Assembly: GCA_943354605.1 (NCBI GenBank)
Contig: CALRCK010000002.1
Location: 6,280 to 70,279 of the forward strand
DNA: 64,000 nt
Reading direction: 5' to 3'
Source of the DNA: Candidatus Uhrbacteria bacterium
GTDB lineage: Bacteria; Patescibacteriota; Patescibacteriia; UBA9934
Shown: positions 2,628 to 64,000 of the stretch, in pieces
How the letters are laid out: each line of letters begins with the position of its first letter
How positions within the stretch are numbered: position 1 is the first letter of the stretch
Translations under genes and position numbers: made by a program
Notes under the pieces: generated by a model
The model's input: the letters and a program-made list of their open reading frames with translations, nothing else
Told to the model about the DNA's origin: nothing
Database searches by the model: none

Positions 2628-4106
2628 ATGTCCGATGTCGGTCGCATCCCTCCACACAATCTTGAAGCCGAGCGCTCGCTGCTTGGCGCGTTGTTGCTTG
2701 ACCAAGAAGTGCTCCTCAAAATCGGCGACACATTGCGGTCAGAGGACTTCTACAAAGATTCTCACCGAATCTTGTACGAAATCATGCTCGAGCTCGTTGA
2801 CCGCCATGAACCGATCGATGTGCTCACCCTCGGCAATCGTCTTGAAGAAAAAGGTGTGCTCAAGCAAATTGGCGGACGAACCGCGCTCGTCGAACTCACG
2901 AACGTGACGACGACTGCCGCACACGTTGCACACCACGCGGAAATTATTGCAAAAAAAGCAGCGCTTCGTCGTTTGCTCTCTGCCGCAAGCGAAATTACGG
3001 AACTTGGGTTCGACGAATCCCAAGACGTGGACGTGCTGCTCGACGAAGCCGAGCGCCGGCTGTTTAACGTTTCACAAAATTTCATTAAGCAATCGTTCAC
3101 GCCGCTCCACACGCTGCTGACTGAGGCGTTCGATCGTATCGACGAGCTTCACAAAGAAAAGGGAAAGCTTCGCGGTGTTGCGACAGGATTCTTTGGCATC
3201 GACAACTTGCTCGCCGGGTTGCAAAACTCGGACCTCATCATTCTCGCCGCCCGACCATCCGTGGGAAAAACATCCTTCGCCATGGACATCATTCGCAACG
3301 TCGCGCTGCGTACCGGCAAACCCGTGGGATTCTTCAGTCTCGAAATGAGCAAGGAACAGTTGGTTGACCGCATGATCTCCGCCGAAGCGAATGTGGACCT
3401 CTGGAAACTTCGTACGGGCCGGCTTTCCGAAAGCGCCGACGACTTCCCTCGCATCGGCGAAGCACTCGGCAAATTGTCGGAAGCGCCAATCTTCATCGAC
3501 GATTCTCCAATCGCGACAATCATGAGTATCCGTACGAAAGCGCGCCGGTTGCAAAGCGAACACGGGCTTTCCATGATCGTCATCGACTACTTGCAGCTCA
3601 TGGAAGCGCGAAAGAAAACGGACAATCGCGTGCAAGAAGTGGCAGAAATTTCTCGAGGATTGAAACAAATCGCTCGTGAACTCAACGTTCCAGTGCTCGC
3701 ACTCGCACAGCTCTCCCGTGCGGTGGAAATGACCAAGCCTGCTATTCCAAAACTCGCCCACCTCCGCGACTCGGGAAGCATCGAGCAGGATGCCGACGTC
3801 GTCATGTTCCTCTACCGTAAAGCCGCAGACCGAAACTATCAGCCAGAGGAACTGACGCCAGAAGAAAAAACCAAAGCCGAAGTGCACATCGCTAAACATC
3901 GTAACGGACCAACCGGCATGGTGCCGCTCTTCTGGGACGCAACGCATGCGAGTTTCAAAAACTTGGACACGCGGACGTCTGGGTTCTCTCCACCCAACAC
4001 CTCACACACTACACCCTCCGATGCTTCCACCGAACCAAAACCCAGCAACGTCGGTCTCCCGCCAGGCGTTCCGCCAAAAGGCTACGGTCTTCCACCGAAA
4101 CAGTAA
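2628..4106 (+). CDS. dnaB: Replicative DNA helicase DnaB.
   Basis: The N-terminus has NLEAERSLLGALLLD. There is a Walker A motif (ARPSVGKTSF), a DnaB C-terminal RecA-like domain (IVIDYLQLM, SGSIEQDADVV) and a 45-aa Pro/Ser/Thr-rich C-terminal tail. Confidence 0.95.
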   Translation: MSDVGRIPPHNLEAERSLLGALLLDQEVLLKIGDTLRSEDFYKDSHRILYEIMLELVDRHEPIDVLTLGNRLEEKGVLKQIGGRTALVELTNVTTTAAHVAHHAEIIAKKAALRRLLSAASEITELGFDESQDVDVLLDEAERRLFNVSQNFIKQSFTPLHTLLTEAFDRIDELHKEKGKLRGVATGFFGIDNLLAGLQNSDLIILAARPSVGKTSFAMDIIRNVALRTGKPVGFFSLEMSKEQLVDRMISAEANVDLWKLRTGRLSESADDFPRIGEALGKLSEAPIFIDDSPIATIMSIRTKARRLQSEHGLSMIVIDYLQLMEARKKTDNRVQEVAEISRGLKQIARELNVPVLALAQLSRAVEMTKPAIPKLAHLRDSGSIEQDADVVMFLYRKAADRNYQPEELTPEEKTKAEVHIAKHRNGPTGMVPLFWDATHASFKNLDTRTSGFSPPNTSHTTPSDASTEPKPSNVGLPPGVPPKGYGLPPKQ

Positions 4107-4158
4107 GATTGGTACCATTCGGAGCGTACGAACGGATAAAGATAAGAATTAATCTCAC

Positions 4159-4284
4159 CTGAACGTTCATATTTGCGACGAGTTTGGGTGCGCGTCGAGG
4201 AAAGCTCGCGAGACGTACTTCATGTGTACGTTGAGCGAGTTTCCGATGACGCAAGCCCAAAATCGGCCAAATAGGGACGTTCAG
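4159..4284 (+). ncRNA. Conserved structured intergenic element, copy 1. The family has seven copies in this window.
   Basis: The shared core is AGTTTCGGTGCGCG..GAGGAAAGC..GCGAGACGTACTTCA..GTACGTTGAGCGAGTTTCC..ACGCAA.CCGAAAAT.GGCCAA. The copy-specific closing stem is ctgaacgt / acgttcag. It ends 7 nt before the ybaB ATG. Confidence 0.5.
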
Positions 4285-4291
4285 AAAACCT

Positions 4292-4585
4292 ATGTTCAAT
4301 AAGATTAAGCAGATCAAAGACATGCGCGACCAGAGCAAGATGATGAAGGCGATGCTCGACGAAGTGGTGATTGTGGGAATAGGCGCTCGCGGAAAAGTGA
4401 TGATCACGGTGAACGGAAGCCACGAAACACTTGGAGTAAAGGTGGATGAGACACTCAACCATTCAGAAATCGAAACCGGCGTGAAGGAAGCGCTCAACGA
4501 CGTGAACAGCAAGCTTCAGGTTGAGCTCATGAAAAAGATGAAAGAGATGGGCGGATTGGATGCGTTTAAGAATCTCGGACTGTAG
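4292..4585 (+). CDS. ybaB: YbaB/EbfC family nucleoid-associated protein.
   Basis: A 97-aa protein MFNKIKQIKDMRDQSKMMKAM...GGLDAFKNLGL. It shows the classic ybaB-recR adjacency. Confidence 0.8.
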   Translation: MFNKIKQIKDMRDQSKMMKAMLDEVVIVGIGARGKVMITVNGSHETLGVKVDETLNHSEIETGVKEALNDVNSKLQVELMKKMKEMGGLDAFKNLGL

Positions 4586-6592: not shown

Positions 6593-6712
6593 GGGGTTTC
6601 TTAGTTGCGACAAGTTTCGGTGCGCGTTGAGGAAAGCTTGCGAGACGTACTTCACGGTACGTTGAGCGAGTTTCCAATAACGCAAACCGAAAATTGGCCA
6701 ACTGAGGAAGCC
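6593..6712 (+). ncRNA. Conserved structured intergenic element, copy 2.
   Basis: It has the same core as copy 1. The closing stem is gggtttcttag / ctgaggaagccc. It ends 10 nt before the HU gene ATG. Confidence 0.5.
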
Positions 6713-8486: not shown

Positions 8487-9728
8487 CTAGTCGGACTTTG
8501 GCCGCTCCACGAGCGTTGCGGTAACCGTCTTTTCATCGCCATCATGCAATATCTTCAACGTGACCGTATCGCCAACTGCTTTTTGACGGAGCTCCGTGGC
8601 GAGTTGATGCGTGCTATCAAGTTTTACCCCATCAACCTCGGTAATAATGTCGTTCTCCTCAATGCCCGCCTTGTCTGCCGGCGAACCCGGAACCACTGCA
8701 AGCGTTTTGCCGTCGTTTCCACGAATCACCAGCGCGCCATCTGTGACCGGAAGATCGTTCGCTTTCGCGTAATCCGCGTCAATCACAACATATCGCACAC
8801 CAAGATACGGCTGAACAATCCGACCATTCTGACGAATAGAATCCACCGTTGCTTTTACCGTATTACTCGGAAGGGAGAATGATATGTTTTCTCCCCCACT
8901 ACTTGTTGCGACGTTTACACCAATCACATGACCGGAAAGATCGAGTAATGGACCACCAGAGTTCCCCGGATTGATTGCCGCATCGGTCTGCAATACATCA
9001 GAAAGTAATTCCGAACCGCCGTTGCTTCCTGCGGTAATGGACCGCGACAAACCGGAAATAACGCCAACGGAAACCGTGTTCCGGAATTGTCCGAGTGCAT
9101 TGCCGATTGCCACCACAGACTGGCCAACCTTTACCGTGTCCGAATCACCAAATTCCAAATAGGACAAGTTGGACGCATCAATTTTCAAGACCGCAATATC
9201 CAACGTGCTGTCTGCCGCAACCACTGTCGCATCATGCTTGCTCTCGTCGTTTAGCAACACGGTGTACTTTGCGTCCTTATCGCTCACCACGTGTGCGTTC
9301 GTGACGATGTATCCATCATCCGACACAATAAATCCGCTTCCTCCACCAATCTCTTTTTCCTCGGTTCCATTTTGCCGATACTGCGGCATGGAGAACCCAA
9401 AAATCCCAAATGGATTATTCTGCCCGTCTTGATTGAGAATTTGTTCCATCTTTGGCACGTCTTTTGTAATAACGATGGACACCACCGCCGGATCTACAGC
9501 ATCGACCACGTCAACGACATCTGAATGATTCCCCGCGGAATCCGTGAGATTCTTTTCTGTCACCGCATGGTCGACAATCGATTGCAACCGATCCCGAAGC
9601 GAATCCTTGAGCGGTGAGTACAACACCAAACTCAAACCAACCGCAACAAGGACCACCTGACACAGCACCGCACCAATAAACCCAACGAACAGCGACGGAA
9701 GGTGTTGCCTGAGTATCTGTTTGTCCAT
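8487..9728 (-). CDS. HtrA/DegP-type serine protease (S1C) with a PDZ domain.
   Basis: It has catalytic-triad context (TNAHVV, D, GNSGGPLLD), a C-terminal PDZ domain and an N-terminal TM helix. The start is chosen at MDKQIL (ATG). Confidence 0.9.
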   Translation of the reverse strand: MDKQILRQHLPSLFVGFIGAVLCQVVLVAVGLSLVLYSPLKDSLRDRLQSIVDHAVTEKNLTDSAGNHSDVVDVVDAVDPAVVSIVITKDVPKMEQILNQDGQNNPFGIFGFSMPQYRQNGTEEKEIGGGSGFIVSDDGYIVTNAHVVSDKDAKYTVLLNDESKHDATVVAADSTLDIAVLKIDASNLSYLEFGDSDTVKVGQSVVAIGNALGQFRNTVSVGVISGLSRSITAGSNGGSELLSDVLQTDAAINPGNSGGPLLDLSGHVIGVNVATSSGGENISFSLPSNTVKATVDSIRQNGRIVQPYLGVRYVVIDADYAKANDLPVTDGALVIRGNDGKTLAVVPGSPADKAGIEENDIITEVDGVKLDSTHQLATELRQKAVGDTVTLKILHDGDEKTVTATLVERPKSD

Positions 9729-9844
9729 ACAGATCAATAATCGATAAGAATATCTTTGAACCACCCGAGAGTATAGATCGAGCGCAAAACAGATTCCAGT
9801 TCCCGCTTCATCGATGATTCATGATTCCGGTATACTGCGGGCGT

Positions 9845-10759
9845 ATGAGCACCCAGGTCGTTATTCTCGGCTACGGAGAGTTTGGGAAAGCCATTCATCA
9901 CCTCCTCCTTCCGCAAACGGACGTGACGGTGACGTGTTGGGATAAGAACAGCGACATCATTCCCGAGCAACATCCGTTACAAACCATTATCCCAACGTGC
10001 GATGTGCTGTTTGTGTGCGTGCCAACATGGACGACACGGTCTGCACTCCAAAGCATCCATCCATTCCTCAATCCAAAAACCATTGTCGTCAGCCCGTCCA
10101 AAGGATTTGAAAAAGAAACCTGTCGTCGCGTCGATACGTTGTTTCCGCAAAATCTCCCAAACCACAACCCGTTCGTTTTTCTTGGCGGGCCAATGATTGC
10201 GGAAGAAATACTTGCAGGTCTTCCGGCAATCGGCGTTGCTGCAAGTACGTCGGTGGACGCGCGATCTGTTGTTGCAACACTTTTTGACCGCACGCCGCTC
10301 GTCGTGTGCCAAACGGACGATCTTGCTGGAGCAGTTCTCGCGGCGGCACTCAAAAATATTTACGCCCTCGGCCTTGGCATTTGCGACGGCCTCCAGATGG
10401 GCAGCAACATTCATGGCGCTCTGGTTGCGCAAGCGACACGAGAAATGATGCACATGATCGAAACGATCGGTGGCAATCCGCAGACGGCATTCGGCCCCGC
10501 AGGACTCGGCGACCTTGTGGCTACCGCACAAAGCGCGAACTCCACGAACTACACCACCGGCACTCGATTTGCGCAAAACCTCAAACCCGTCCGCGGAAGC
10601 GAAGCACTCAACACCATCCCCTGCATCGTGAACATTCCAGGGGTCGTGCTTGCAGACATTCCGTTCCTCAGATCAATTTACGGCGTTGTTGTTGAAAAAA
10701 GCCCGGCCAGAGAAGCGTTTCTCACAGCGCTTCTTGCGCTTTGCCCAAAAACGGTCTAA
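9845..10759 (+). CDS. gpsA: NAD(P)H-dependent glycerol-3-phosphate dehydrogenase.
   Basis: It has a Rossmann N-terminus (VVILGYGEFGKAI) and the GpsA C-terminal motifs KNIYALGLGICDGL, GSN and GLGDL. The start is chosen at MSTQVV. Confidence 0.75.
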   Translation: MSTQVVILGYGEFGKAIHHLLLPQTDVTVTCWDKNSDIIPEQHPLQTIIPTCDVLFVCVPTWTTRSALQSIHPFLNPKTIVVSPSKGFEKETCRRVDTLFPQNLPNHNPFVFLGGPMIAEEILAGLPAIGVAASTSVDARSVVATLFDRTPLVVCQTDDLAGAVLAAALKNIYALGLGICDGLQMGSNIHGALVAQATREMMHMIETIGGNPQTAFGPAGLGDLVATAQSANSTNYTTGTRFAQNLKPVRGSEALNTIPCIVNIPGVVLADIPFLRSIYGVVVEKSPAREAFLTALLALCPKTV

Positions 10760-13591: not shown

Positions 13592-14851
13592 TCAGGTCTG
13601 CTCGCACCAGGCCACGAAGGTCTGGATACGTTCGATCGCCTTGCTGTCCTCGACCACCCGACCCTCGAACTTGATCTTCGCGCCGCGAACGGCGTTCAAC
13701 ATCCGCTCGATGGTGGGCCAGGTGTGGGGCACCGGCCGTTCCGCGTGGAGCCGTGCAACCGTCGCCGGGCTGAGGGCCTGGATCCGATCAGCAAGGCTCC
13801 TATTGGAGTCGCTGATGAAGATCGGACCGGTCCCCTTCGACTTCTTCTCGCCGTTGATCGTCCGTTCGAGCTCGGCCAGCGCCGCCTTCGAGGGGCGGGG
13901 ACTGGAGGGCACGGTGGACGAGCGGTTGGCGCGGAGGTGGTCGAAGATGTTGAACGGCTTCTTCGGCGCGTTCGCTTCGGCGGCCTTGCGAGCCTCCTCC
14001 GCGATGCGGGCGGCTTCGGCCTTGGCCTTCGCCGCCTCAGCCGCACGGTAGCGGACGACCGCGGCCTCAAGGCCGCGACTGACGGAGCTGAGCCAAGCCA
14101 GGTCTGCGCATCGGCCGTTCTCCAGGAACCAGCCGCGGGTGAGGGCACCGTTCCAGGCGTAGGCGAACGCGCCGTCGTCCATGCTCTGAACGAACGTCGC
14201 GAACTCCGTGTACGCGGTAGCGAGGTCCCATTCCGCATCGAGGCGAGCACGCTCCGCAGCGGCCTGGCGCTCGGCCTCGGCGGCCTCCTTCTGCCGATAG
14301 TCGCCCATCGCGGAGTCGAACACGGCTTGGGTCTTGCCGACCCAGTCCATGTCGCCATGCGAGATGTTCTCTTCGAACCAGCTCCGGGGGTACTTGCCGC
14401 CCCAGGTCTGGACGAAGAAGGCATCGGGCGCCTGGCGGACGACGGAGAGGAACGAATCGCGAGCGTTCTGCAGCTCCCGCCACTTCTGCTCCGCGGCTTC
14501 GGCGGCCTTGCGGGCTTCGGCGGCCTTACGGGCCTCCTCGGCGCGGGCGGCTTCGGCCTTGGCCTCGGCTTCCGCGGCGGCCTTGCGCTCGGCCGCGAGT
14601 CGGGCGAGGCGGGCCTCCTCGAGCTTCGCCTGGTGCGCGGCCTCGTCGAGGGCCTTCTGCGCGAGATCAGTCGCCATGCTGCGGTTCCGCCGCTTCACCC
14701 CGGCGGGGTTCATGCGGAGGATGGGGATGACGACGTCGTCGCGGCCGTAGTCGGGGCCCCAGGCACGACCCATGTTGCGGTCGGCACGGAAGGCAAAGGC
14801 GTCTTCGACACGGGAGGCACGGGAGGCGAAGTGTGCGGCGTTGCTGGACAT
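13592..14851 (-). CDS. Hypothetical Ala/Glu-rich coiled-coil protein with internal Trp-rich repeats, in high-GC island 2.
   Basis: The 13490-14900 segment is about 65% GC. It has AEAARKAAE repeats and two related modules (FFVQTWGGKYPRSWFEENISHGDMDWVG and FAYAWNGALTRGWFLENGRCADLAWL). The antisense 431-aa ORF is an artifact. Confidence 0.5.
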   Translation of the reverse strand: MSSNAAHFASRASRVEDAFAFRADRNMGRAWGPDYGRDDVVIPILRMNPAGVKRRNRSMATDLAQKALDEAAHQAKLEEARLARLAAERKAAAEAEAKAEAARAEEARKAAEARKAAEAAEQKWRELQNARDSFLSVVRQAPDAFFVQTWGGKYPRSWFEENISHGDMDWVGKTQAVFDSAMGDYRQKEAAEAERQAAAERARLDAEWDLATAYTEFATFVQSMDDGAFAYAWNGALTRGWFLENGRCADLAWLSSVSRGLEAAVVRYRAAEAAKAKAEAARIAEEARKAAEANAPKKPFNIFDHLRANRSSTVPSSPRPSKAALAELERTINGEKKSKGTGPIFISDSNRSLADRIQALSPATVARLHAERPVPHTWPTIERMLNAVRGAKIKFEGRVVEDSKAIERIQTFVAWCEQT

Positions 14852-15112
14852 TGAAGGTTCTCCGGGTGGGATCAGTGGGGTAACGGGACAGGAAGGATGT
14901 GGGGGAGAATTCCCTCCACGAAAGCCCGCTGAATAGCCTATTCAACAGATTTTCGCAGAAAGAATGCACATCTCATAACCCTATACTATAGCAGAAAAAG
15001 GCGTTTTTGTCAATAAAAATGGCTAATATGAGCGAAAAAAGAAGCCTTTCTAGGGTATTCCACTTTGATGATTCTCTTGTGTTGCGATACACTTCGCTTC
15101 GATCGAACAGAT

Positions 15113-15239
15113 CAGGATTTTCTTATTTCAGACCAGTTTCGGTGCGCGACAAAAGCATAAGCACCAAGCCGTACTTCTCAGTACGCCCTCGATCATGCCG
15201 AGGAAGTAAGCCGAAAATTGGCAAATAAGGATATCCTGC
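15113..15239 (+). ncRNA. Conserved structured intergenic element, copy 4.
   Basis: Its core is AGTTTCGGTGCGCG...CCGTACTTCTCAGTACGCC...GCCGAAAATTGGCAA. The closing stem is caggat / atcctg. It ends 1 nt before the tRNA-Gln 5' end. Confidence 0.5.
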
Positions 15240-15240
15240 A

Positions 15241-15314
15241 TTCCGGGATCGTCTAACGGCAGGACAGCGGCCTTTGAAGCCGTGAACCGTGGTTCGAATC
15301 CACGTCCCGGAACC
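15241..15314 (+). tRNA. tRNA-Gln (anticodon TTG). CCA is encoded.
   Basis: The acceptor stem is tccggga/tcccgga. The T-arm is cgtgg-TTCGAAT-ccacg. The anticodon loop is cTTTGAAg. Confidence 0.8.
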
Positions 15315-15417
15315 ATCACGACCTGTTCCTACAGACCGGAACAGGGGGTGACCAAGAAAACCCGCCTCCAGTAATGGAAGCGGGTTTTCGATTGAGATAT
15401 GCTAATATGATCTGCAT

Positions 15418-15708
15418 ATGAGCAAACAAATGCGAAATCGTATCTTGATCAGCGTAATTGTTGGATTCATTCTGACGTTTGCATCGTTCGGCATACGAGA
15501 AAAGAATTCTCCCCTTGGGTATCCGAAAGTTAGTGCGGGTTATCCAAGAGCTTACTTGAGGGACGCTGGCGGTGTCAGTGTCGAAGGGTCACTTGGTCCA
15601 GAGGATTATTTTTCTCTGGGAGATTTTTTTATTGACGTGCTCGCATTCACCCTTGCAGCAAATGCTGTAGTTGAGCTGGGACAACAAGTAAAACGAGAAA
15701 AGAGTTGA
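15418..15708 (+). CDS. Small two-TM membrane protein directly upstream of the MazF-like gene.
   Basis: A 96-aa protein with hydrophobic helices at both ends. It lies in an AT-rich (about 40% GC) islet 3' of tRNA-Gln. There is a 7-nt gap to the next gene. Confidence 0.4.
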   Translation: MSKQMRNRILISVIVGFILTFASFGIREKNSPLGYPKVSAGYPRAYLRDAGGVSVEGSLGPEDYFSLGDFFIDVLAFTLAANAVVELGQQVKREKS

Positions 15709-15715
15709 GGATCTT

Positions 15716-16144
15716 ATGACTGCTCGTGGCATACTTAACTCAGTACAGCGATTCATCGCTTGGACGAACAGAAAAATCACTATCCATTTCGAAGATCGCT
15801 CAGAGTTCTATTTTTATGAGCGAGAAGTTTGGTGGGCGAGCTTGGGTGAAAATGTTGGATCGGAAACGAACGGTAAGAATTTTCATTTTGAACGTCCCAT
15901 CGTGATTGTGAAAAAATTCAGCAAAGATATGCTTTTCGTGATACCCACAACGACGAAAACTAAAGTTGGAACATGGTATCAGCCAATTGAATACGGTGAC
16001 ATAAAAACTCAGGCAATTTTAGCTCAAGCAAGGACCATTAGCGCAAAACGACTCATTCGAAAAATTGGCAATCTTTCACCAGAACAATTTCAACCACTCA
16101 TTGAAGGATTCGTTGCGCTTATAAAAACGAATTCCTCGACGTGA
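15716..16144 (+). CDS. PemK/MazF-family endoribonuclease toxin-like protein with a roughly 35-aa N-terminal extension.
   Basis: EVWWASLGENVGSETNGK...RPIVIV aligns to MazF/Kid GDIWxVDLDPTxGSEQxGxRPxVV. FVIPTTTKTK and the C-terminal ARTIS...L..I also match the fold. Confidence 0.55.
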   Translation: MTARGILNSVQRFIAWTNRKITIHFEDRSEFYFYEREVWWASLGENVGSETNGKNFHFERPIVIVKKFSKDMLFVIPTTTKTKVGTWYQPIEYGDIKTQAILAQARTISAKRLIRKIGNLSPEQFQPLIEGFVALIKTNSST

Positions 16145-21833: not shown

Positions 21834-21909
21834 TGGAGCCATTTCCGGGAATCGAACCCGGGACCTCTGCTTTACGAAAGCATTGCTCTACCAGCTGAGC
21901 TAAAATGGC
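21834..21909 (-). tRNA. tRNA-Thr (anticodon CGT). CCA is encoded.
   Basis: Reverse-complement reading gives GCCATTTTAGCTCAGCTGGTAGAGCAATGCTTTCGTAAAGCAGAGGTCCCGGGTTCGATTCCCGGAAATGGCTCCA. Confidence 0.8.
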
Positions 21910-21912
21910 AGG

Positions 21913-22036
21913 TGAAACGCCCACATTTGGCCTCTTTTCGACTCACTGCGTCGCAAATTCGCTCAACGTACCGTGACGTACGCCTCGCGAACTTTGCTCC
22001 TCGTTCATCGAAAATAGTCTCAAATGTGAACGTTTC
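21913..22036 (-). ncRNA. Conserved structured intergenic element, minus-strand copy, between tRNA-Gly and tRNA-Thr.
   Basis: The reverse complement carries the ATTTGAGAC...GCGAGGCGTACGTCACGGTACGTTGAGCGAATTTGCGACGCAG...GTCGAAAAGAGGCCAAA core. It has a 15-bp closing stem (gaaacgttcacattt / aaatgtgggcgtttc, 2 G-U pairs). Its 3' end is 3 nt from the tRNA-Thr 5' end. Confidence 0.5.
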
Positions 22037-23489: not shown

Positions 23490-23612
23490 GGAGATTTCTC
23501 ATTTGCGACGAGTTTCGGTGCGCAAGGAGCACAGTTCGCGAGGCGTACTTCTTGGTACGTTGAGCGAATGTGCGACGCAGCAAGCCGAAAATCGGCCAAA
23601 GGAGGAATCTCC
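23490..23612 (+). ncRNA. Conserved structured intergenic element, copy 3, antisense to the surrounding minus-strand operon.
   Basis: Its core is ATTTGCGACGAGTTTCGGTGCGC..GCGAGGCGTACTTCTTGGTACGTTGAGCGAATGTGCGACGCAGCAAGCCGAAAATCGGCCAAAGGAGG. The closing stem is ggagatttc / gaatctcc. There is no co-oriented gene downstream. Confidence 0.45.
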
Positions 23613-23614
23613 AC

Positions 23615-24094
23615 CTATTGTACCTTAGGGAGTGCGCTCACCACAGCATCAGGCTTCCACACCGGGCCGACAATCAACGAAAATCCATCCTCGTCGGCGC
23701 CGCGAATACAGACGTGGCCGTAGCCAATCATGGACGAAAGACCTTTGCGCATCGCCACGATCTTCTCAACGACACTCCAGGAAAGCTCGGTAACGTGGAA
23801 CGACTTTCGTTTTGAATGAACATCAATGGCGCGACGAGACGTAATGTACATGCCGTTCTCAAGATACGATCGGCGCGTATCGCGGAGCTGAGTTGTCCCA
23901 ATCATGAACGAAAGCGCACCAAGAAAGCCGCCAAAAAAAACGCCAAGGTAGAGCAACGACGACCAAAAAACGAATGGAAACACAATCAACACGAGCGCCG
24001 CAAGAATCCGCGGTGTGAGCGACCATAAACTCGGGCGAATGACGCCAAGAAATTCTTCGTCTGGTTCGAGCGTAAAAAACTTTCGCTGAATCAT
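23615..24094 (-). CDS. Membrane protein with a bacterial PH-like (YdbS/YdbT-like) domain.
   Basis: It has two TM helices and then YITSRRAIDVH..., which is bPH_2-like. Its ATG overlaps the murE stop (ATGA). Confidence 0.35.
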   Translation of the reverse strand: MIQRKFFTLEPDEEFLGVIRPSLWSLTPRILAALVLIVFPFVFWSSLLYLGVFFGGFLGALSFMIGTTQLRDTRRSYLENGMYITSRRAIDVHSKRKSFHVTELSWSVVEKIVAMRKGLSSMIGYGHVCIRGADEDGFSLIVGPVWKPDAVVSALPKVQ

Positions 24095-29805: not shown

Positions 29806-29807
29806 AG

Positions 29808-29933
29808 GGAGAACGCCCCCGGTTGGTCTATTTTCGGCTTGCGGCTTCGAAAACTTTTTCAACGTACCGAGAAGTACGTCTCAAAAGCTTTTCTCGCCAC
29901 GCACCGAAACTAGCCACAACCGGGAACGTTCTC
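29808..29933 (-). ncRNA. Conserved structured intergenic element, minus-strand copy, immediately 5' of tRNA-Lys.
   Basis: The reverse complement carries AGTTTCGGTGCGTGGCGAGAAAAGC..GAGACGTACTTCTCGGTACGTTGA...GCCGAAAATAGACCAA. The closing stem is gagaacgttcccgg / ccgggggcgttctc. Its 3' end is 2-3 nt from the tRNA-Lys 5' end. Confidence 0.5.
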
Positions 29934-35121: not shown

Positions 35122-35156
35122 GGACTAACTTAGTTTGTCACTAACGTAGTTAGTCC
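35122..35156. repeat. Solo REP-like palindrome of the GACTAACTTAG...TAGTTAGTC family. It overlaps the last 9 codons of pyrG.
   Basis: The sequence ggactaacttagtttgtcactaacgtagttagtcc matches the inverted ends of the transposase unit at 62669-62701 and 63374-63406. Confidence 0.55.
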
Positions 35157-36785
35157 TTCATGTTTGTCCGCAGAGGCTTGAACAAATTTCACGAATAAAG
35201 GGTGAGGTCGCAGCGGACGCGATTGAAATTCTGGATGGAACTGTACGCCGACGAAAAACGGGTGCTCAGCGACCTCGATAATTTCGACGAGACGATCGTC
35301 CGGCGACGTGCCGGCAATGATCAGCCCGGCATCGATGAGCTGCTGACGATACTCGTTATTGAATTCGTAGCGGTGACGGTGACGTTCATTGGTCGAATTG
35401 GACCCATAGGACCTATACGAAAGTGAGTTTTCTGCGAGAACACACGGATAGCTCCCCAGCCGCAACGTTCCGCCAATTCCGGTTCCCTTGAGTTTCTTCG
35501 CCTGATCATTCATCAGGTGAATAACCGGATTCTTCGTCTTCGGCGCGATCTCCGTGGTATGCGCATCAGCAAGCCCAAGCACCGATCGCGCAAACTCAAT
35601 CACCGCGCACTGCATACCGTAGCAGATGCCAAAGTACGGGATCTTGTGTTCGCGAACATACTTGATCGCCGCCATCTTTCCTTCAATTCCTCGCGAACCA
35701 AATCCGCCAGGCACCAACACGCCGTCGTACTGTGCGAGTTCCTGAAGCTTTGACGGATCCTGTTCGTACGCTTCGCTATTGAGCCATTCAATCACCGGTT
35801 TCCGACCAATACTCCACGCGGCATGCTTAATCGCCTCGAGCACCGAGAGGTATGCGTCGGACAACACGAAGTCTCCGGTAGAAAAGTATTTGCCGATGAC
35901 GCCGATACGAACCGGACGATCAACAGTCTCGATCGTATCGGCAAGCGAGTCCCAAGCCGAAAGGTTCGGTGCCGATCGCGCCTTCATCCGAAACGACTTC
36001 AACACCGAGTCGGCGAACCCTTGCTCATCGAACAGCCGAGGCACCTCATAAATCGACCTGGCGTTCGGTGCGGTGATGATGTGCGACGGATGCACGCCGC
36101 AGAATCGGCTCAACTTCTCTCGCCGTGGCATATCGAGCGCAACCTCAGATCGACAAATCAAGAACTCTGGATTGATACCGATCCGATTCACCTCGCGAAC
36201 CGCGTGCTGCGTTGGTTTCGTCTTCATCTCGCCAATCGACGGTGGAACCGGAAGATAACTGACAAGTACCGTCCGAACATCGTCAGGATTCTTCAGCTTC
36301 ATCATGCGAATCGCTTCAAGAAAAAGAATGTTCTCGTACTCACCAACCGTTCCGCCAATCTCAACGAGCACGAAATCCGCCTTCGCCTTCTTTGCCGCCT
36401 TCTCAAGACGATCGATCACTTCCTCCGGAACTCTCGGAACGACCTCAACGCACTTCCCATGATAATCTCCACGGCGCTCACGCTCGATCACAGACTGATA
36501 CACCCGACCGGTCGTCATGTAATTCACCGACGTGATGTTCTCATCAAGGAAGCGCTCATAGTTCCCAATGTCCTGGTCGGTCTCGTCGCCATCGATCGTC
36601 ACAAATACTTCGCCGTGTTCCACTGGGTTCATCGTCCCCGCGTCCACATTCACATACGGATCAATTTTCACGGCCGTTACTCGAAACCCTCGAGCTTTAA
36701 GAGTCAATCCAAGCGCTGCGCTACTCGTCCCCTTTCCCACGCCGCTCATGACTCCACCCACAACAAAGATATATCGATGATGCAT
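35130..36785 (-). CDS. pyrG: CTP synthase.
   Basis: It has an N-terminal synthetase domain (YIFVVGGVMSGVGKG, a P-loop) and a C-terminal class-I glutamine amidotransferase domain (GICYGMQ, HPEF). Confidence 0.95.
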   Translation of the reverse strand: MHHRYIFVVGGVMSGVGKGTSSAALGLTLKARGFRVTAVKIDPYVNVDAGTMNPVEHGEVFVTIDGDETDQDIGNYERFLDENITSVNYMTTGRVYQSVIERERRGDYHGKCVEVVPRVPEEVIDRLEKAAKKAKADFVLVEIGGTVGEYENILFLEAIRMMKLKNPDDVRTVLVSYLPVPPSIGEMKTKPTQHAVREVNRIGINPEFLICRSEVALDMPRREKLSRFCGVHPSHIITAPNARSIYEVPRLFDEQGFADSVLKSFRMKARSAPNLSAWDSLADTIETVDRPVRIGVIGKYFSTGDFVLSDAYLSVLEAIKHAAWSIGRKPVIEWLNSEAYEQDPSKLQELAQYDGVLVPGGFGSRGIEGKMAAIKYVREHKIPYFGICYGMQCAVIEFARSVLGLADAHTTEIAPKTKNPVIHLMNDQAKKLKGTGIGGTLRLGSYPCVLAENSLSYRSYGSNSTNERHRHRYEFNNEYRQQLIDAGLIIAGTSPDDRLVEIIEVAEHPFFVGVQFHPEFQSRPLRPHPLFVKFVQASADKHEGLTTLVTN

Positions 36786-60514: not shown

Positions 60515-62602
60515 TTACCACCCAGCAAAAAATGCGCCGGTGGTAGAGCCAAAGGTTGGCGCATGCCACGATCCAAGAACGGTTTTTCCGTCAGACACCG
60601 TCAGTGTGACTAAACCAGCATCCACGTTTTCCATCGTCATCATATCATCCCAGCCATCAAGATCGAGATCCGTACCAACCGTCGCTGTTCCGGAAGACGC
60701 CTGATCCTGAAGAACAAACACTCCAACGAGTGAGCCGATGGTCCGAACAACATTCACTGTGTTCCCCGAAGACAAGTTGCTCACGAAAATGTCGTCAATA
60801 AGATCCCCGTCGCGGTCGCCAGCCGAAACGCTCACCGCGGTCGCGCTTGGGAATGGAACAAAGTCCACGAGATATTTCCCATCGTTGTCGTACACCGCAA
60901 CATGGATCGCACCATCAATAACGCCGCTGACCACAACTTCGTCCGCAGAGTCTTGATCAATGTCTGCAGTAGAGACGGAGAGCGCCGAACTTGATGGGAA
61001 CACCGACGCTGGGAAACGGAAAATTTCTTCCCCGCTCTCGCTCCATGCAACAACGTCTTGGCTAACGCCCTCGCCAACCGCGGTAACAATATCGTCCTCG
61101 CCGTCGCCGTTGATATCACCAACAGCAACAGAAACGCCGTGGCTCGACGCGTTGTCGTATGCAAAAAACTCGTGGTCGACCGCACCGAAGGCTTTAAACA
61201 CTCGAACGTGCGGGCCACCGGATTCACCAGCACCGGTCACAATTTCCGGAATGCCATCGTGATCATTATTGATGGTTGCCACACGAACGCCACCGTGAAA
61301 GTTGCTCGAATACGCCATAAACCTTGCGTATTCCGATCCATCCGCCCGCCGAACATCAACTGCTGGCGCAACACCAGACGGTGCACCAAAAACGGCAAAC
61401 GAATATCTGAGAACATCCTCAGATCCTGTCGCAACGTCGGACTTCGTCGATTCCGAATCTGTGGCGGACGATGCTGACGCAGCGGGAATGGATGTCTCAA
61501 CATCCACTGCCGGAGCGTATGAAGACGCCATCGAAAGCGCCCGGTCAATATTCAATCGACCCGCCCCAAGCTGACCAGACGTAAAACCAGTGATCGTGAC
61601 TGGATCCACCGAAAGCTTCAGAATATTTCTCACGTCCGCTGCAGAAAGACTAGGAAATCGGGAAAAAAGAAGCGCCGCAGCACCAGCAACAAGCGGTGAT
61701 GCCATAGACGTTCCGCTCCATCCGCCCTGATAAAGGTCTGGATACCCGGCACGAGTGTTTTGATACGCCAATCCATACACATCGGTCCCCGGCGCAGCAA
61801 CGTCGGCACAAATCGTTCCAAAATTCGTAAAAGGAGCCCCATGGTCCGTTTCGTCAATGGCCGTTACGCCAATCACCCAATCGTCGTCTGTTGTTCGTAG
61901 GCATGCGGGATACACCGGATTCGCATTCGTATCGCGGGCATCGTTTCCCATTGCTGCAACAACCACAACGCCATGTGCGTATGCATCTTTGACCGCATTT
62001 TGCAGTGCCGTGTGTGCCTCGTTCCCCGCAAAACTCAAATTAATGACTTTCGCACCATTCCGTACCGCGTATCGAATAGCATTCGCAGCATCGTATTCTG
62101 TTCCGCTGCCCTGATCATCGAGCATGCGCACCGGCATAATTTTTACCGACCAATTGACGCCAGAAATACCAACATGATTATCGCCAACCGCACCAATTTC
62201 CCCGGCAATAAGTGTTCCGTGCAAAATCGCTTCTTCCGACGAATCGTTCTTCGGGCTTGGTGAAGGATCGTTGTCGCCACCAATAAAATCCCAGCCATGC
62301 ACGTCGTCCACAAAGCCATTCGCGTCGTCGTCTTCCCCATTCCCCGGAATTTCTTTTGTGTTCACCCAAAGGTTATCTACGATATCCTCATGCGTGAGAT
62401 CGAGGCCCGTATCGAGCACTGCAACAGTTACCGAGGACGAACCCGTGGTAACGTCCCACGCCGCTGGAGCATGGATTGCGTCCAAATACCACTGCTGTTC
62501 AGCGTATCGAGGATCGTTAGGCGTTTGGGCAAGAACAAGCGATGGGATAAGCGCGGCGGAGGCTGCAGCAGCAATCACACGCGAAAAAAAGCGATATCGC
62601 AT
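60515..62602 (-). CDS. Secreted S8 subtilisin-like serine peptidase with C-terminal FG-GAP/VCBS-like repeats.
   Basis: It has a signal peptide and the catalytic Asp (VAVLDTGL), His (HGTLIAG) and Ser (GTSMASPLVAGAAAL). C-terminal repeats contain DxDGDG motifs. Confidence 0.85.
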   Translation of the reverse strand: MRYRFFSRVIAAAASAALIPSLVLAQTPNDPRYAEQQWYLDAIHAPAAWDVTTGSSSVTVAVLDTGLDLTHEDIVDNLWVNTKEIPGNGEDDDANGFVDDVHGWDFIGGDNDPSPSPKNDSSEEAILHGTLIAGEIGAVGDNHVGISGVNWSVKIMPVRMLDDQGSGTEYDAANAIRYAVRNGAKVINLSFAGNEAHTALQNAVKDAYAHGVVVVAAMGNDARDTNANPVYPACLRTTDDDWVIGVTAIDETDHGAPFTNFGTICADVAAPGTDVYGLAYQNTRAGYPDLYQGGWSGTSMASPLVAGAAALLFSRFPSLSAADVRNILKLSVDPVTITGFTSGQLGAGRLNIDRALSMASSYAPAVDVETSIPAASASSATDSESTKSDVATGSEDVLRYSFAVFGAPSGVAPAVDVRRADGSEYARFMAYSSNFHGGVRVATINNDHDGIPEIVTGAGESGGPHVRVFKAFGAVDHEFFAYDNASSHGVSVAVGDINGDGEDDIVTAVGEGVSQDVVAWSESGEEIFRFPASVFPSSSALSVSTADIDQDSADEVVVSGVIDGAIHVAVYDNDGKYLVDFVPFPSATAVSVSAGDRDGDLIDDIFVSNLSSGNTVNVVRTIGSLVGVFVLQDQASSGTATVGTDLDLDGWDDMMTMENVDAGLVTLTVSDGKTVLGSWHAPTFGSTTGAFFAGW

Positions 62603-62795
62603 AGAATGTTTTAATTATCCCACGCGGAGCAACGAAACAAAAGAACGGTACCCACAGGCACTGTCCTCGACTAACTTAGTTAGTCACAAACTAAGTTAGT
62701 CACAGGCCTCATTGACGAAGGAAAGAAAGTGAGAAAAAATAGACTCAATCCCCACGCCCGAAAGGCCTGGGTTTTTATTTGGCCGCAAATGATTT

Positions 62796-63374
62796 ATGCG
62801 GAATATTATTTTCGGAACTGGCGAGTTTTATCATATTTACAATCGCGGTGTGGACAAGCGAACAACTTTTCTCGAAAGCCAACACTACAAACATTTCATG
62901 TTTCTCGCCGGAAGAAGCAAACACGAAATAGGGACAGGAAAACACCTTGTAAATCTGCATGCCTACGCCCTGATGCCAAATCACTTTCATTTTCTCCTTG
63001 AGCAAATGTGCGACGATGGCATAGCGCAGTTTATGCAACGTCTGAGCACTAGCTATACTCGGTGGTTCAATCATCAAAACAACCGAACAGGCAGCCTCTT
63101 TGAAACAACCTACAAAGCCAAACATATCGATACAAACGCCTACCTCGCGGTCGTTGCCGCCTATATTCATCGAAACCCGCTCGATATCATCGGAACCGAT
63201 TCAGTAGAAAATCTTGATACGTACGAATGGTCAAGCTATCCGCACTATCGAGGAATTGTAAAAAATCCCATAGTAGACGATGCGATGCTTTTCGATTTCT
63301 TTGGTGGGAAGGATTGTATTCAAAACTTTCACCAAAAATCCTTTACTCTTGGCATTGATGGCTTCGCGGAATAA
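62796..63374 (+). CDS. HUH-family Y1 tyrosine transposase (REP-associated tyrosine transposase / IS200-like TnpA).
   Basis: It has the HUH motif (NHFHFLL) and a catalytic Tyr region (TSYTRWFNHQNNRTGSLFETTYKAKHI). The roughly 190-aa size fits the family. Confidence 0.7.
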   Translation: MRNIIFGTGEFYHIYNRGVDKRTTFLESQHYKHFMFLAGRSKHEIGTGKHLVNLHAYALMPNHFHFLLEQMCDDGIAQFMQRLSTSYTRWFNHQNNRTGSLFETTYKAKHIDTNAYLAVVAAYIHRNPLDIIGTDSVENLDTYEWSSYPHYRGIVKNPIVDDAMLFDFFGGKDCIQNFHQKSFTLGIDGFAE

Positions 63375-63413
63375 CAAACTAAGTTTGAGACTAACTAAGT
63401 TAGTCAGCTTGTG

Positions 63414-63453
63414 AAACAAAAGAACGGTGCCCACAGGCACCGTTCTTTTGTTT
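63414..63453. terminator. Perfect 17-bp-stem hairpin with a T-run. It acts as a bidirectional terminator at the element's right end.
   Basis: The hairpin aacaaaagaacggtgcc-cacag-gcaccgttcttttgtt is followed by tttatc. Confidence 0.6.
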
Positions 63454-64000
63454 TTATCGAGGAGCTTCGCAAGTTGCGAGCTTGTCTTGTTGTTCTTGTT
63501 TTAAGACTGCCGCGTCGTCTGGCGATAGAGATATCGCAACATCATAATGTGCTTTACCCTGATCACAATCTCCAGTCTCAAAGAACCAATCGCCAAGCGC
63601 GGTCATGGTCCATGGGGTCTGCAGAAGATTCTTATACGCATCGTCCAACACCGCCTTCACATCATTACGACGATCCGGATAGTGGAGTTTTAAGAATTCA
63701 ACGTAGTCACGATAATATTCCTCGGTTTTTAAAAGGTCGAGCGATTTTTTGTATCCCGCTTCTGCATTTGGATAATCCGTCATCAGTTCCAAAAGGGCAG
63801 CGTACGAATTCCACGCAACGTACGACGTTGGCATGAGGGCCAAATATTTCTCATAGGTTTTACGGGACGCAACCAAATCACCAAGCATCTTTTCGTTTTC
63901 GGCAATAACAAGGTAGAGCTGATTATCAACCTCGGCGCCGGAAGAAACCTGCGACGCCAACGATGCTTGCGCGGTTGCAAGGCGCTGTTGCAGTAATACC
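63454..64000 (-). CDS. Tetratricopeptide-repeat protein. The 5' end lies beyond the window.
   Basis: It has TPR-like repeats (YEKYLALMPTSYVAWNSYAALLE...). The ORF continues in frame past 64000. Confidence 0.6.
   Translation of the reverse strand, partial: VLLQQRLATAQASLASQVSSGAEVDNQLYLVIAENEKMLGDLVASRKTYEKYLALMPTSYVAWNSYAALLELMTDYPNAEAGYKKSLDLLKTEEYYRDYVEFLKLHYPDRRNDVKAVLDDAYKNLLQTPWTMTALGDWFFETGDCDQGKAHYDVAISLSPDDAAVLKQEQQDKLATCEAPR

Follow-up and report, generated by a model that had tools for sequence, protein, structure and literature searches.

A RAYT-like enzyme between inverted palindromic doublets in Candidatus Uhrbacteria, and a related doublet at the 3' end of pyrG

Is a lone tyrosine transposase gene set between inverted palindromes in a Patescibacteria genome an active insertion sequence (IS), a relic, or an enzyme that its host has kept together with its own repeats? 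The question is raised by a locus near the end of a 64,000-nucleotide stretch of Candidatus Uhrbacteria DNA (assembly GCA_943354605.1, contig CALRCK010000002.1, positions 6,280 to 70,279 of the forward strand), hereafter the window. An earlier note on this DNA described the locus as a compact system made of repetitive extragenic palindromes (REPs) and a REP-associated tyrosine transposase (RAYT), and proposed that one REP copy had remodelled the 3' end of pyrG. Our analysis indicates that the locus is probably a unit of the REPtron/TIRtron type, that is, a single-copy, domesticated RAYT-class HUH/Y1 enzyme lying between inverted cognate doublets of 16-nt palindromes.

Among intragenomic replicators that are long-lived and vertically inherited, REP/RAYT systems provide the best example. 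To our knowledge, work on them has been confined almost entirely to Proteobacteria and Cyanobacteria, where the repeat families are large.

Results

Inverted palindromic doublets flank the RAYT gene

The core of the locus is made of the following features.

62796..63374, plus strand: RAYT-like HUH/Y1 tyrosine transposase gene, 192 aa (Pfam Y1_Tnp, AlphaFold2 fold, invariant residues)
62982-62990: HUH residues H63/H65
63162-63164: catalytic tyrosine Y123
62669..62701, no strand assigned: left REP-like doublet, two palindromic units of ~16 nt, GACTAACTTAGTTAGTC followed by ACAAACTAAGTTAGTC (motif matches, inverted arms)
63374..63405, no strand assigned: right REP-like doublet, inverted relative to the left one and beginning at the final base of the RAYT stop codon

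The two arms (62669-62700 and 63374-63405) are 32 nt long, inverted and 91% complementary. Each is a doublet of a self-palindromic unit of ~16 nt, GACTAAC-TWA-GTTAGTC, in which the core AACTWAGTT recurs with a 16-nt period. Searches of the 64-kb window, to which all counts of the doublet refer, placed these matches far above chance. The 17-mer GACTAACTTAGTTAGTC, allowing up to 3 mismatches, was found in three places only (0.03 expected). The pattern AACTWAGTT-N7-AACTWAGTT gave 3 sites with up to 2 mismatches (0.00 expected), and still the same 3 with up to 4 mismatches, where shuffled sequences averaged 0.38. The third site lies at the end of pyrG; of its 33 positions, 3-4 do not match the flanking doublets. 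Folding of the doublets as single-stranded DNA gave 13-bp hairpins or paired small hairpins (z -3.6 to -7.6), the left doublet forming a 13-bp hairpin with z = -7.6. On each strand, two of the three frames of the unit contain stop codons. A Y1 transposase gene between inverted REP-like copies, as the earlier note had described it, was therefore recovered.

The RAYT protein has the fold and catalytic residues of a Y1 transposase

The product of the gene matched the Pfam family PF01797 (Y1_Tnp) with 41.3 bits against a gathering threshold of 23 (E=2e-10). It displays the HUH motif as N62-H63-F64-H65 and the tyrosine motif as Y123-IHRNP. Residues Y12, H13, R17, G18, R22, N62, H63, H65, N92, R97, G99, L101, Y123 and N127 were invariant across 40 homologues. 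Phmmer of the protein against the sequences in the PDB returned nothing useful, and a profile of the family reached only E ~0.3, to ISDra2 TnpA and to 4ER8. As these searches were too weak, a comparison of folds was needed. The AlphaFold2 model, built on the homologue alignment, had a pLDDT of 91.8 and a pTM of 0.89. Foldseek analysis against the PDB returned Y1 transposases for all of the top 30 matches; the best was 4ER8, E. coli TnpA_REP with a REP hairpin (E=1e-7, TM 0.70 over 172 columns), and the IS608, ISDra2 and IS200 transposases ranked below it (E 3e-5 or higher). In the model, the C-terminal ~60 residues form short helices, and no second Pfam domain was detected in the protein at an E of 0.01 or better, a helix-turn-helix (HTH) domain being among those absent. 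By its residues and predicted fold, the enzyme is an intact member of the HUH/Y1 family.

The RAYT-like family is widespread in Patescibacteria, with 811 matches in the protein database, most of them in single-member clusters; homologues of the genes next to the RAYT are annotated as Patescibacteria or Candidatus Uhrbacteria. The family shares the motif set NHFH / LF(Q/E) / YIH(L/R)NP / WSSY, for which the window protein has LFE and YIHRNP and the consensus LFQ and YIHLNP. The window holds one RAYT copy, and the identical protein forms a singleton database cluster found on one contig only; the earlier note had named a single copy as typical of REP-associated Y1 transposases. No tnpB was found among the open reading frames (ORFs) of the window. 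Comparison with the orthologue in L005, one of the relatives described below, gave pN 0.10 and pS 0.82. Since pN is well below a saturated pS, the gene is under strong purifying selection; the same saturation of synonymous sites precludes an estimate of dS.

The RAYT slot and the palindrome cores are conserved in six relatives

The gene order S8 peptidase (minus strand), RAYT (plus strand), TPR protein (minus strand) is shared by six lineages. Identities to the window for the S8 peptidase and the RAYT were 89% and 80% in L005, 64% and 63% in L026, 69% and 63% in L033, 63% and 57% in L030, 62% and 57% in L158, and 72% and 51% in L157. The divergence of the RAYT thus tracks that of the host.

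On both flanks, and in all seven lineages including the window, the most conserved non-coding features are the 9-bp cores at their 16-nt period. The AAC...GTT frame and the period are kept on both sides, whereas the centre of the core is lineage-specific. It reads AACTWAGTT in the window, L005, L026, L030 and L033 and AACTSAGTT in L157. L158 has AACCTAGTT as its left core and AACTAGGTT as its right one; because this core is not palindromic, the inverted orientation of the flanks is unambiguous. The cores have been kept although silent sites are saturated, indicating that they are constrained. Differences between lineages that preserve the palindrome are what co-evolution of enzyme and repeat would predict. 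Collectively, occupation of the same slot in six relatives, purifying selection and co-variation of the core with the lineage indicate that this RAYT behaves as a vertically inherited, domesticated enzyme rather than as an active IS.

The direct repeats around the cassette derive from a probable host terminator

The cassette lies between two genes and two copies of a hairpin sequence.

60515..62602, minus strand: S8 peptidase gene, conserved left neighbour and synteny anchor
63454..63960, minus strand: TPR-protein gene, conserved right neighbour and synteny anchor
62634..62667, plus strand: left copy of the duplicated host terminator hairpin, with left arm and loop kept and right arm decayed
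63413..63453, no strand assigned: right hairpin copy, a perfect 18-bp stem between an A-tract and a T-tract (folding, empty-site comparison)

Direct repeats of roughly 27 bp, the right one forming a perfect hairpin, had been noted before. They extend over 34 nt (62634-62667 and 63413-63446) and are 91% identical. The right copy (63414-63431 paired with 63436-63453) forms a stem of 18 perfect base pairs, at -21.8 kcal/mol and with z = -8.7; no fold was obtained for the left copy (z = -0.08). The left copy precedes the start codon of the S8 peptidase gene by 32 nt and keeps the arm, loop and T-tract next to that start. The window and L005 agree in 27 nt of this copy in spite of saturated synonymous sites. 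Judging by position and sequence, the left copy may be part of the S8 promoter or leader, and the right copy may terminate transcription in both directions, from the convergent RAYT and TPR genes.

The closest relative found, L162 (S8 90.5% identical; a 236,793-bp contig from Hainich groundwater), revealed the nature of these sequences. There, the S8 gene comes directly after the TPR gene; RAYT and doublets are both missing, and the 72-bp spacer between the genes holds one copy of the hairpin and no more, GAAACAAAAGAACGGTACCCACAGACACCGTTCTTTCC. The flanks of this copy are collinear with the window, corresponding to the left flank of the left repeat and the right flank of the right repeat. An empty site with one full hairpin means that the direct repeats are host terminator and not part of the element. 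The candidate explanation in which these hairpins are the ends of an IS200/IS605 element was thereby ruled out. The cassette itself consists of the left doublet, the RAYT, the right doublet and 7 nt more, ~745 bp in all, between two copies of the terminator.

The RAYT is present in lineages of every depth (S8 identity 62-89%), and L005 and L162 are equally close to the window. Secondary loss of the cassette by recombination between the repeats is therefore the most parsimonious explanation of the empty site. In L026, the two hairpin copies are more alike than each is to its orthologue in the window, which suggests gene conversion or an independent duplication.

A doublet supplies the last codons and the stop of pyrG

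The third doublet of the window lies at the end of an essential gene.

35130..36785, minus strand: pyrG (CTP synthase), 551 aa, with a REP-derived C-terminal tail
35123..35155, no strand assigned: solo REP-like doublet; its minus strand encodes the last 8 pyrG codons (GLTTLVTN) and TAA

The C-terminus of PyrG reads ...FVQASADKHE-GLTTLVTN*, and the final 8 codons with the TAA are the reverse complement of the doublet. The overlap with the last codons and the stop was thus as first described, with the correction that 8 codons are involved and not 9. Comparison with 30 PyrG orthologues (64-94% identity) showed that they end 2-9 residues past a conserved FVxAA, with unrelated and mostly basic tails. 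In L023 (PyrG 87-88% identical), the stop codon leads straight into a terminator shared with rpmA, and no doublet motif is present. The motif is also absent from the pyrG 3' end of L022, whose PyrG is 93% identical. The PyrG encoded on the contig of L162 (P0241) has 543 aa and the tail SNRTM. Because the relatives lack the doublet at this place, its presence is a lineage-specific insertion that replaced only a non-conserved tail. Remodelling of the pyrG end by a REP, as proposed earlier, therefore held against relatives without the motif. With stops in two of three frames on both strands of the unit, read-through of pyrG into the insertion is short. We also observed that L022 has a 241-aa ORF without a Pfam hit (9535-10260) between pyrG and rpmA, at the position of the solo doublet of the window.

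A sister lineage, L159 (PyrG 93% identical, 551 aa), has a different doublet, TCAACCCTTAGGGTTGA followed by TCAACCCTAAGGGTTGA, at the same nucleotide position. It lies at 4516-4549 and is read in the same frame, adding 8 codons (STLRVDQP) to the gene before a TAA that lies midway in the second unit. A search for the palindrome of this doublet, AACCCTWAGGGTT, in the window and in all the loci compared found no other occurrence. Replacement of one doublet by another, independent insertion into a hot spot and conversion from an unseen family could all account equally for this difference. Two Logan contigs, L160 and L161, end exactly within a palindromic doublet of the L159 type (TCAACCCTTAGGGTTGA twice); this may be an assembly break induced by the repeat.

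Solo doublets at gene ends occur in metagenomes

Scanning of genome-collection contigs for GACTAACTWAGTTAGTC gave 16 isolated matches, in unrelated phyla only and none from the source genome, which the collection does not include; a scan of viral contigs gave 4 isolated chance matches. In the metagenome scan, most of the 120 stretches listed were AT-rich chance matches or tandem repeats. Among these listed matches, at least about 10 were credible solo doublets, on contigs with a GC of 0.44-0.54 and no RAYT nearby. All of the credible copies listed were intergenic or overlapped gene ends, and in five of them (L090, L116, L128, L139 and L105) the stop codon of the upstream ORF lay inside the doublet. 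L068, L090 and L116, which come from one sample, have a 25-mer of the left flank of L005 in common. L038 matches the right-flank doublet of L026 beyond the search pattern (CCCAC...TCTT), and the two come from the same groundwater sample with similar coverage. Blastn of the contigs with solo doublets against the window detected no synteny. These copies support dispersal of the doublet, not its abundance.

A separate observation concerns L071 (64-540, contig Ga0172379_10018688), a RAYT homologue with 31% identity that contains a perfect palindrome, CCAACTTAGTTACCGGGTAACTAAGTTGG, in frame. The palindrome lies between the N-terminal motif and HUH and encodes QLSYPVTKLE; a second YPVTKL is found near the C-terminus. 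This arrangement resembles the insertions of REPs into tnpA_REP genes of subclass 2.4.

Promoter, leader and strand of the RAYT gene

Two further elements were found between the left doublet and the RAYT start codon.

62712..62740, plus strand: promoter-like site for the RAYT, TTGACG-17 nt-AAAAAT (consensus scan; putative function)
62751..62781, plus strand: G+C-rich hairpin with a T-run in the RAYT leader, ~15 nt upstream of the ATG (putative function)

The promoter-like site starts 10 nt downstream of the left doublet, and its TTGAC is kept in the window, L005 and L026. The outer stem of the leader hairpin, CCCCA/TGGGG, and the T-run are kept in seven lineages, and the inner stem differs between lineages in a complementary manner (GCC/GGC versus ACCAC/GTGGT). 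By sequence, the hairpin resembles a terminator or attenuator. It recalls the leader structures of IS200, which repress the synthesis of the IS200 transposase. Expression of the RAYT may thus be low and insulated.

GC skew was negative in 31 of the 32 2-kb bins of the window (1-64000), the bin 14001-16000 being slightly positive. The pyrG, S8 peptidase and TPR genes are all on the minus strand and the RAYT is on the plus strand. From skew and gene strands together, the plus strand, which carries the RAYT, is probably the lagging strand. In L033, a PIN/MazE-type toxin-antitoxin pair (3855-4489) lies directly beyond the TPR gene by the RAYT slot; the other lineages are without it.

A longer hairpin is repeated in the window

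The window also contains at least 6 copies of an imperfect hairpin of ~120 nt, roughly one per 10 kb.

4160-4285, minus strand: copy of the ~120-nt hairpin
6595-6712, minus strand: copy of the same hairpin
15115-15230, minus strand: copy of the same hairpin
21909-22034, plus strand: copy of the same hairpin
23491-23617, minus strand: copy of the same hairpin
29806-29933, plus strand: copy of the same hairpin
Outside the window: copies at L162 1121-1240 and 3637-3754, L158 4821-4917, L028 8136-8248, L105, and L116 2192-2319

RNAalifold analysis of 4 copies gave 46 pairs, and compensatory double changes were seen in 18 of these. Three copies adjoin tRNA genes (Gln; between Thr and Gly; Lys). The hairpin occurs in a relative without the RAYT too and has no Rfam entry; an Rfam search of the window returned tRNAs only. 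It is far commoner than the AACTWAGTT doublets and does not lie beside the RAYT. A structured RNA specific to the clade is one possibility, and a palindromic repeat like a REPIN or a miniature inverted-repeat transposable element (MITE) is another.

Discussion

We consider it probable that the locus is a unit of the REPtron/TIRtron type. This reading is carried by direct observation of the anatomy of the locus, the fold of its enzyme, conservation, co-variation, the empty site and the pyrG comparison. The REPtron, or REPIN-RAYT system, is reportedly represented by E. coli TnpA_REP/YafM with its REPs and BIMEs, and by the REPINs of Pseudomonas (Nunvar 2010; Bertels & Rainey 2011; Ton-Hoang 2012; Messing 2012, PDB 4ER8). 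Like a REPtron, the locus has a single-copy Y1 gene between inverted palindromic repeats, copies of the repeat elsewhere at gene ends, vertical inheritance with housekeeping-like behaviour, and a repeat sequence that co-varies with an enzyme whose best structural match is 4ER8. It differs in its host, a genome of the Patescibacteria or candidate phyla radiation (CPR), and in its repeats, which are tandem doublets or triplets of 16-nt self-palindromes and not imperfect hairpins of 20-40 nt.

The enzyme can be placed further by its motifs. The second of the signatures given for TnpA_Y1 subclass 2.1 (group 1 of Bertels, 'TIRYT') is NH[YF]H, FQ, Y[IV]HLNP and a proximal SS (Quentin 2018, PMC6006769, Table 1), and the consensus of the family matches it, the match being a comparison with that table and not a search with the authors' HMMs. 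The inverted repeats that flank TIRtrons are non-canonical, include 'double palindromic' ones, may overlap a gene end and are at most moderately abundant (Di Nocera 2013, PMC3733652); the terminal inverted repeats described here are likewise not canonical REPs. Low abundance of flanking 16-mers has been reported for group 1 RAYTs (Bertels 2017). Unlike TIRtrons, the locus shows no GGGGWSAS motif, and no C-terminal HTH-like domain (Bac_DnaA_C / HTH_23 / HTH_28-like) was detected in its protein, which at 192 aa is also shorter than their median of 238. Unlike subclass 2.1 as reported, it has cognate palindromes kept over seven lineages, and solo copies exist. By sequence signature, then, the unit appears closest to the TIRYT/TIRtron group, that is, subclass 2.1, and would work like a REPtron. 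Intragenic REP insertions are known (Di Nocera 2013), and REPs have been found inside tnpA_REP of subclass 2.4 (Quentin 2018). The pyrG doublet resembles them in that a palindrome lies inside a coding region without destroying the protein, but it replaces a C-terminal tail and supplies the stop instead of lying in an internal loop.

Several observations weigh against this interpretation. The protein scored 42.9 bits against the NCBIfam equivalog for RAYTs (NF047646, REP_Tyr_transpos), below the cutoff of 80. The canonical REP is an imperfect hairpin with a 5' GT[AG]G foot (Quentin 2018, PMC6006769); this foot is not present in the doublets, which are tandem 16-nt palindromes and so, by sequence, would be atypical REPs. 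Even with relaxed matching, there are 3 doublets in 64 kb and one of them is solo, where REPtrons have tens to hundreds of copies. No solo doublets were found in ~150 kb of relatives' loci, so the repeat family may be very small, and the metagenomic solo copies are not assignable with certainty to genomes that bear the RAYT. No REP-like sequences have been reported for TnpA_Y1 subclass 2.1 (Quentin 2018, PMC6006769). The remaining point concerns the hairpins on either side of the cassette. Y1 transposition creates no target duplications and so would not account for the 34-nt duplication. The earlier identification of a REP/RAYT system is nevertheless supported, for the enzyme through Pfam and 4ER8, with the reservations that the window has one solo copy only, the repeats are atypical, the protein scores below the equivalog cutoff and the direct repeats are host terminator.

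Some of these points would suit a fossil system, in which the RAYT was kept for another host function, such as the processing of single-stranded DNA, and the doublets are immobile relics or autoregulatory sites, the pyrG copy being old. The very low copy number in the window is consistent with this, as are the 3-4 differences in 33 positions between the pyrG doublet and the flanking ones, the 10 nt that separate the left doublet from the -35 box of the RAYT, and the few or no associated repeats reported for group 1 / subclass 2.1 enzymes. However, the closest relatives sampled, with PyrG 92-94% identical, do not have the pyrG doublet, which is therefore not ancient; several contigs from a single metagenome carry solo doublets that have the same 25-mer, and the catalytic residues are invariant. 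We regard a fossil as unlikely. The position near the promoter, kept on the left flank in seven lineages, might also indicate operator sites, and palindromic 9-bp cores at a fixed 16-nt spacing do resemble tandem operators. The doublets would then bind a regulator of the RAYT, S8 and other genes, either the RAYT-like protein itself or an unrelated transcription factor, and their dispersal would reflect a regulon and not transposition. We give this little credence: equally conserved inverted copies lie downstream of the RAYT stop codon, the solo copies are at or in gene 3' ends with stops inside them and not at promoters, and the associated protein has the TnpA_REP fold and no detected HTH domain.

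An active IS of the IS200/IS605 type (IS200, IS608, ISDra2), inserted between the S8 and TPR genes and ending in the two direct-repeat hairpins, would explain the Y1 transposase gene, with its HUH/Y1 fold and catalytic residues, and the hairpin DNA near it. Two similar hairpin-like sequences do flank the gene in direct orientation, as at IS200/IS605 ends, and the terminator-like leader hairpin has a counterpart in IS200. The same slot, however, is occupied down to an S8 identity of 62%, with RAYT divergence tracking that of the host, and there is one copy only, both in the 64-kb window and, for the protein, on one contig. The empty site retains one full hairpin, which makes the hairpin host sequence, and the left copy does not fold. 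NHFH and YIHRNP are motifs of class 2, where IS200 TnpA has DH[VI]H and Y[IV]ENQ, and there is no tnpB. Near-identical copies, subterminal hairpins of its own and class 1 motifs, by which an IS200/IS605 element is recognised, were all absent. We can hardly credit an active IS at this locus. A bolder proposal goes beyond the REPtron/TIRtron-type unit. A Patescibacteria-wide clade of subclass-2.1-like Y1 enzymes might have co-evolving 16-nt doublets that serve as exchangeable gene-end modules, inserting at or in last codons and supplying stops, with the cassette cleanly gained and lost through the duplicated terminator hairpin. The occurrence of AACTWAGTT (window) and AACCCTWAGGGTT (L159) at one pyrG site, with the same frame and geometry, is what suggests it. 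We consider it doubtful; if it is true, one doublet at pyrG would have been replaced or re-targeted by another in a site-directed way.

Returning to the REPtron/TIRtron-type unit, we propose the following course of events, by analogy with E. coli TnpA_REP and IS608 TnpA. Doublets on transiently single-stranded DNA would form hairpins, which the RAYT would bind, cutting and rejoining the DNA by means of Y123 and a metal held by HUH. Occasionally, a RAYT-dependent reaction of this kind may place a copy of a doublet somewhere new, in most cases at a gene end. A copy of this sort would have landed in the last codons of pyrG, whose frame then ran for 8 codons to a TAA in the second unit. Around the cassette, the right hairpin copy would still terminate the TPR and RAYT transcripts and the left copy would keep the half that adjoins S8. 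Recombination between the two copies may delete the whole cassette, as in the closest relative, L162.

In the literature that was searched, we found no account of REP/RAYT in CPR. The system is real and of the REP/RAYT type, fairly ordinary in itself but found in an unusual host; it is unsurprising in principle and overturns no current view. What is new is the conserved slot in six relatives, with purifying selection on the gene and co-variation of the doublet core with lineage, the direct repeats of host terminator with their empty site, and the different pyrG doublet in a sister lineage. The data suggest that TnpA_Y1 subclass 2.1 owes its label 'REP-less' in part to an artefact of detection: searches based on GTAG miss atypical palindromes in low copy number. 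Here, the same REP/RAYT architecture is seen in a CPR genome that is ultra-small, and the repeat family is minimal. The locus provides a natural comparative series, in which widely diverged lineages have the site occupied, one relative has it precisely empty, the cores are specific to the lineage and a repeat has rewritten the C-terminus of a gene. This series makes the co-evolution of enzyme and repeat, the cost or neutrality of insertions in compact genomes, and the loss of the cassette testable.

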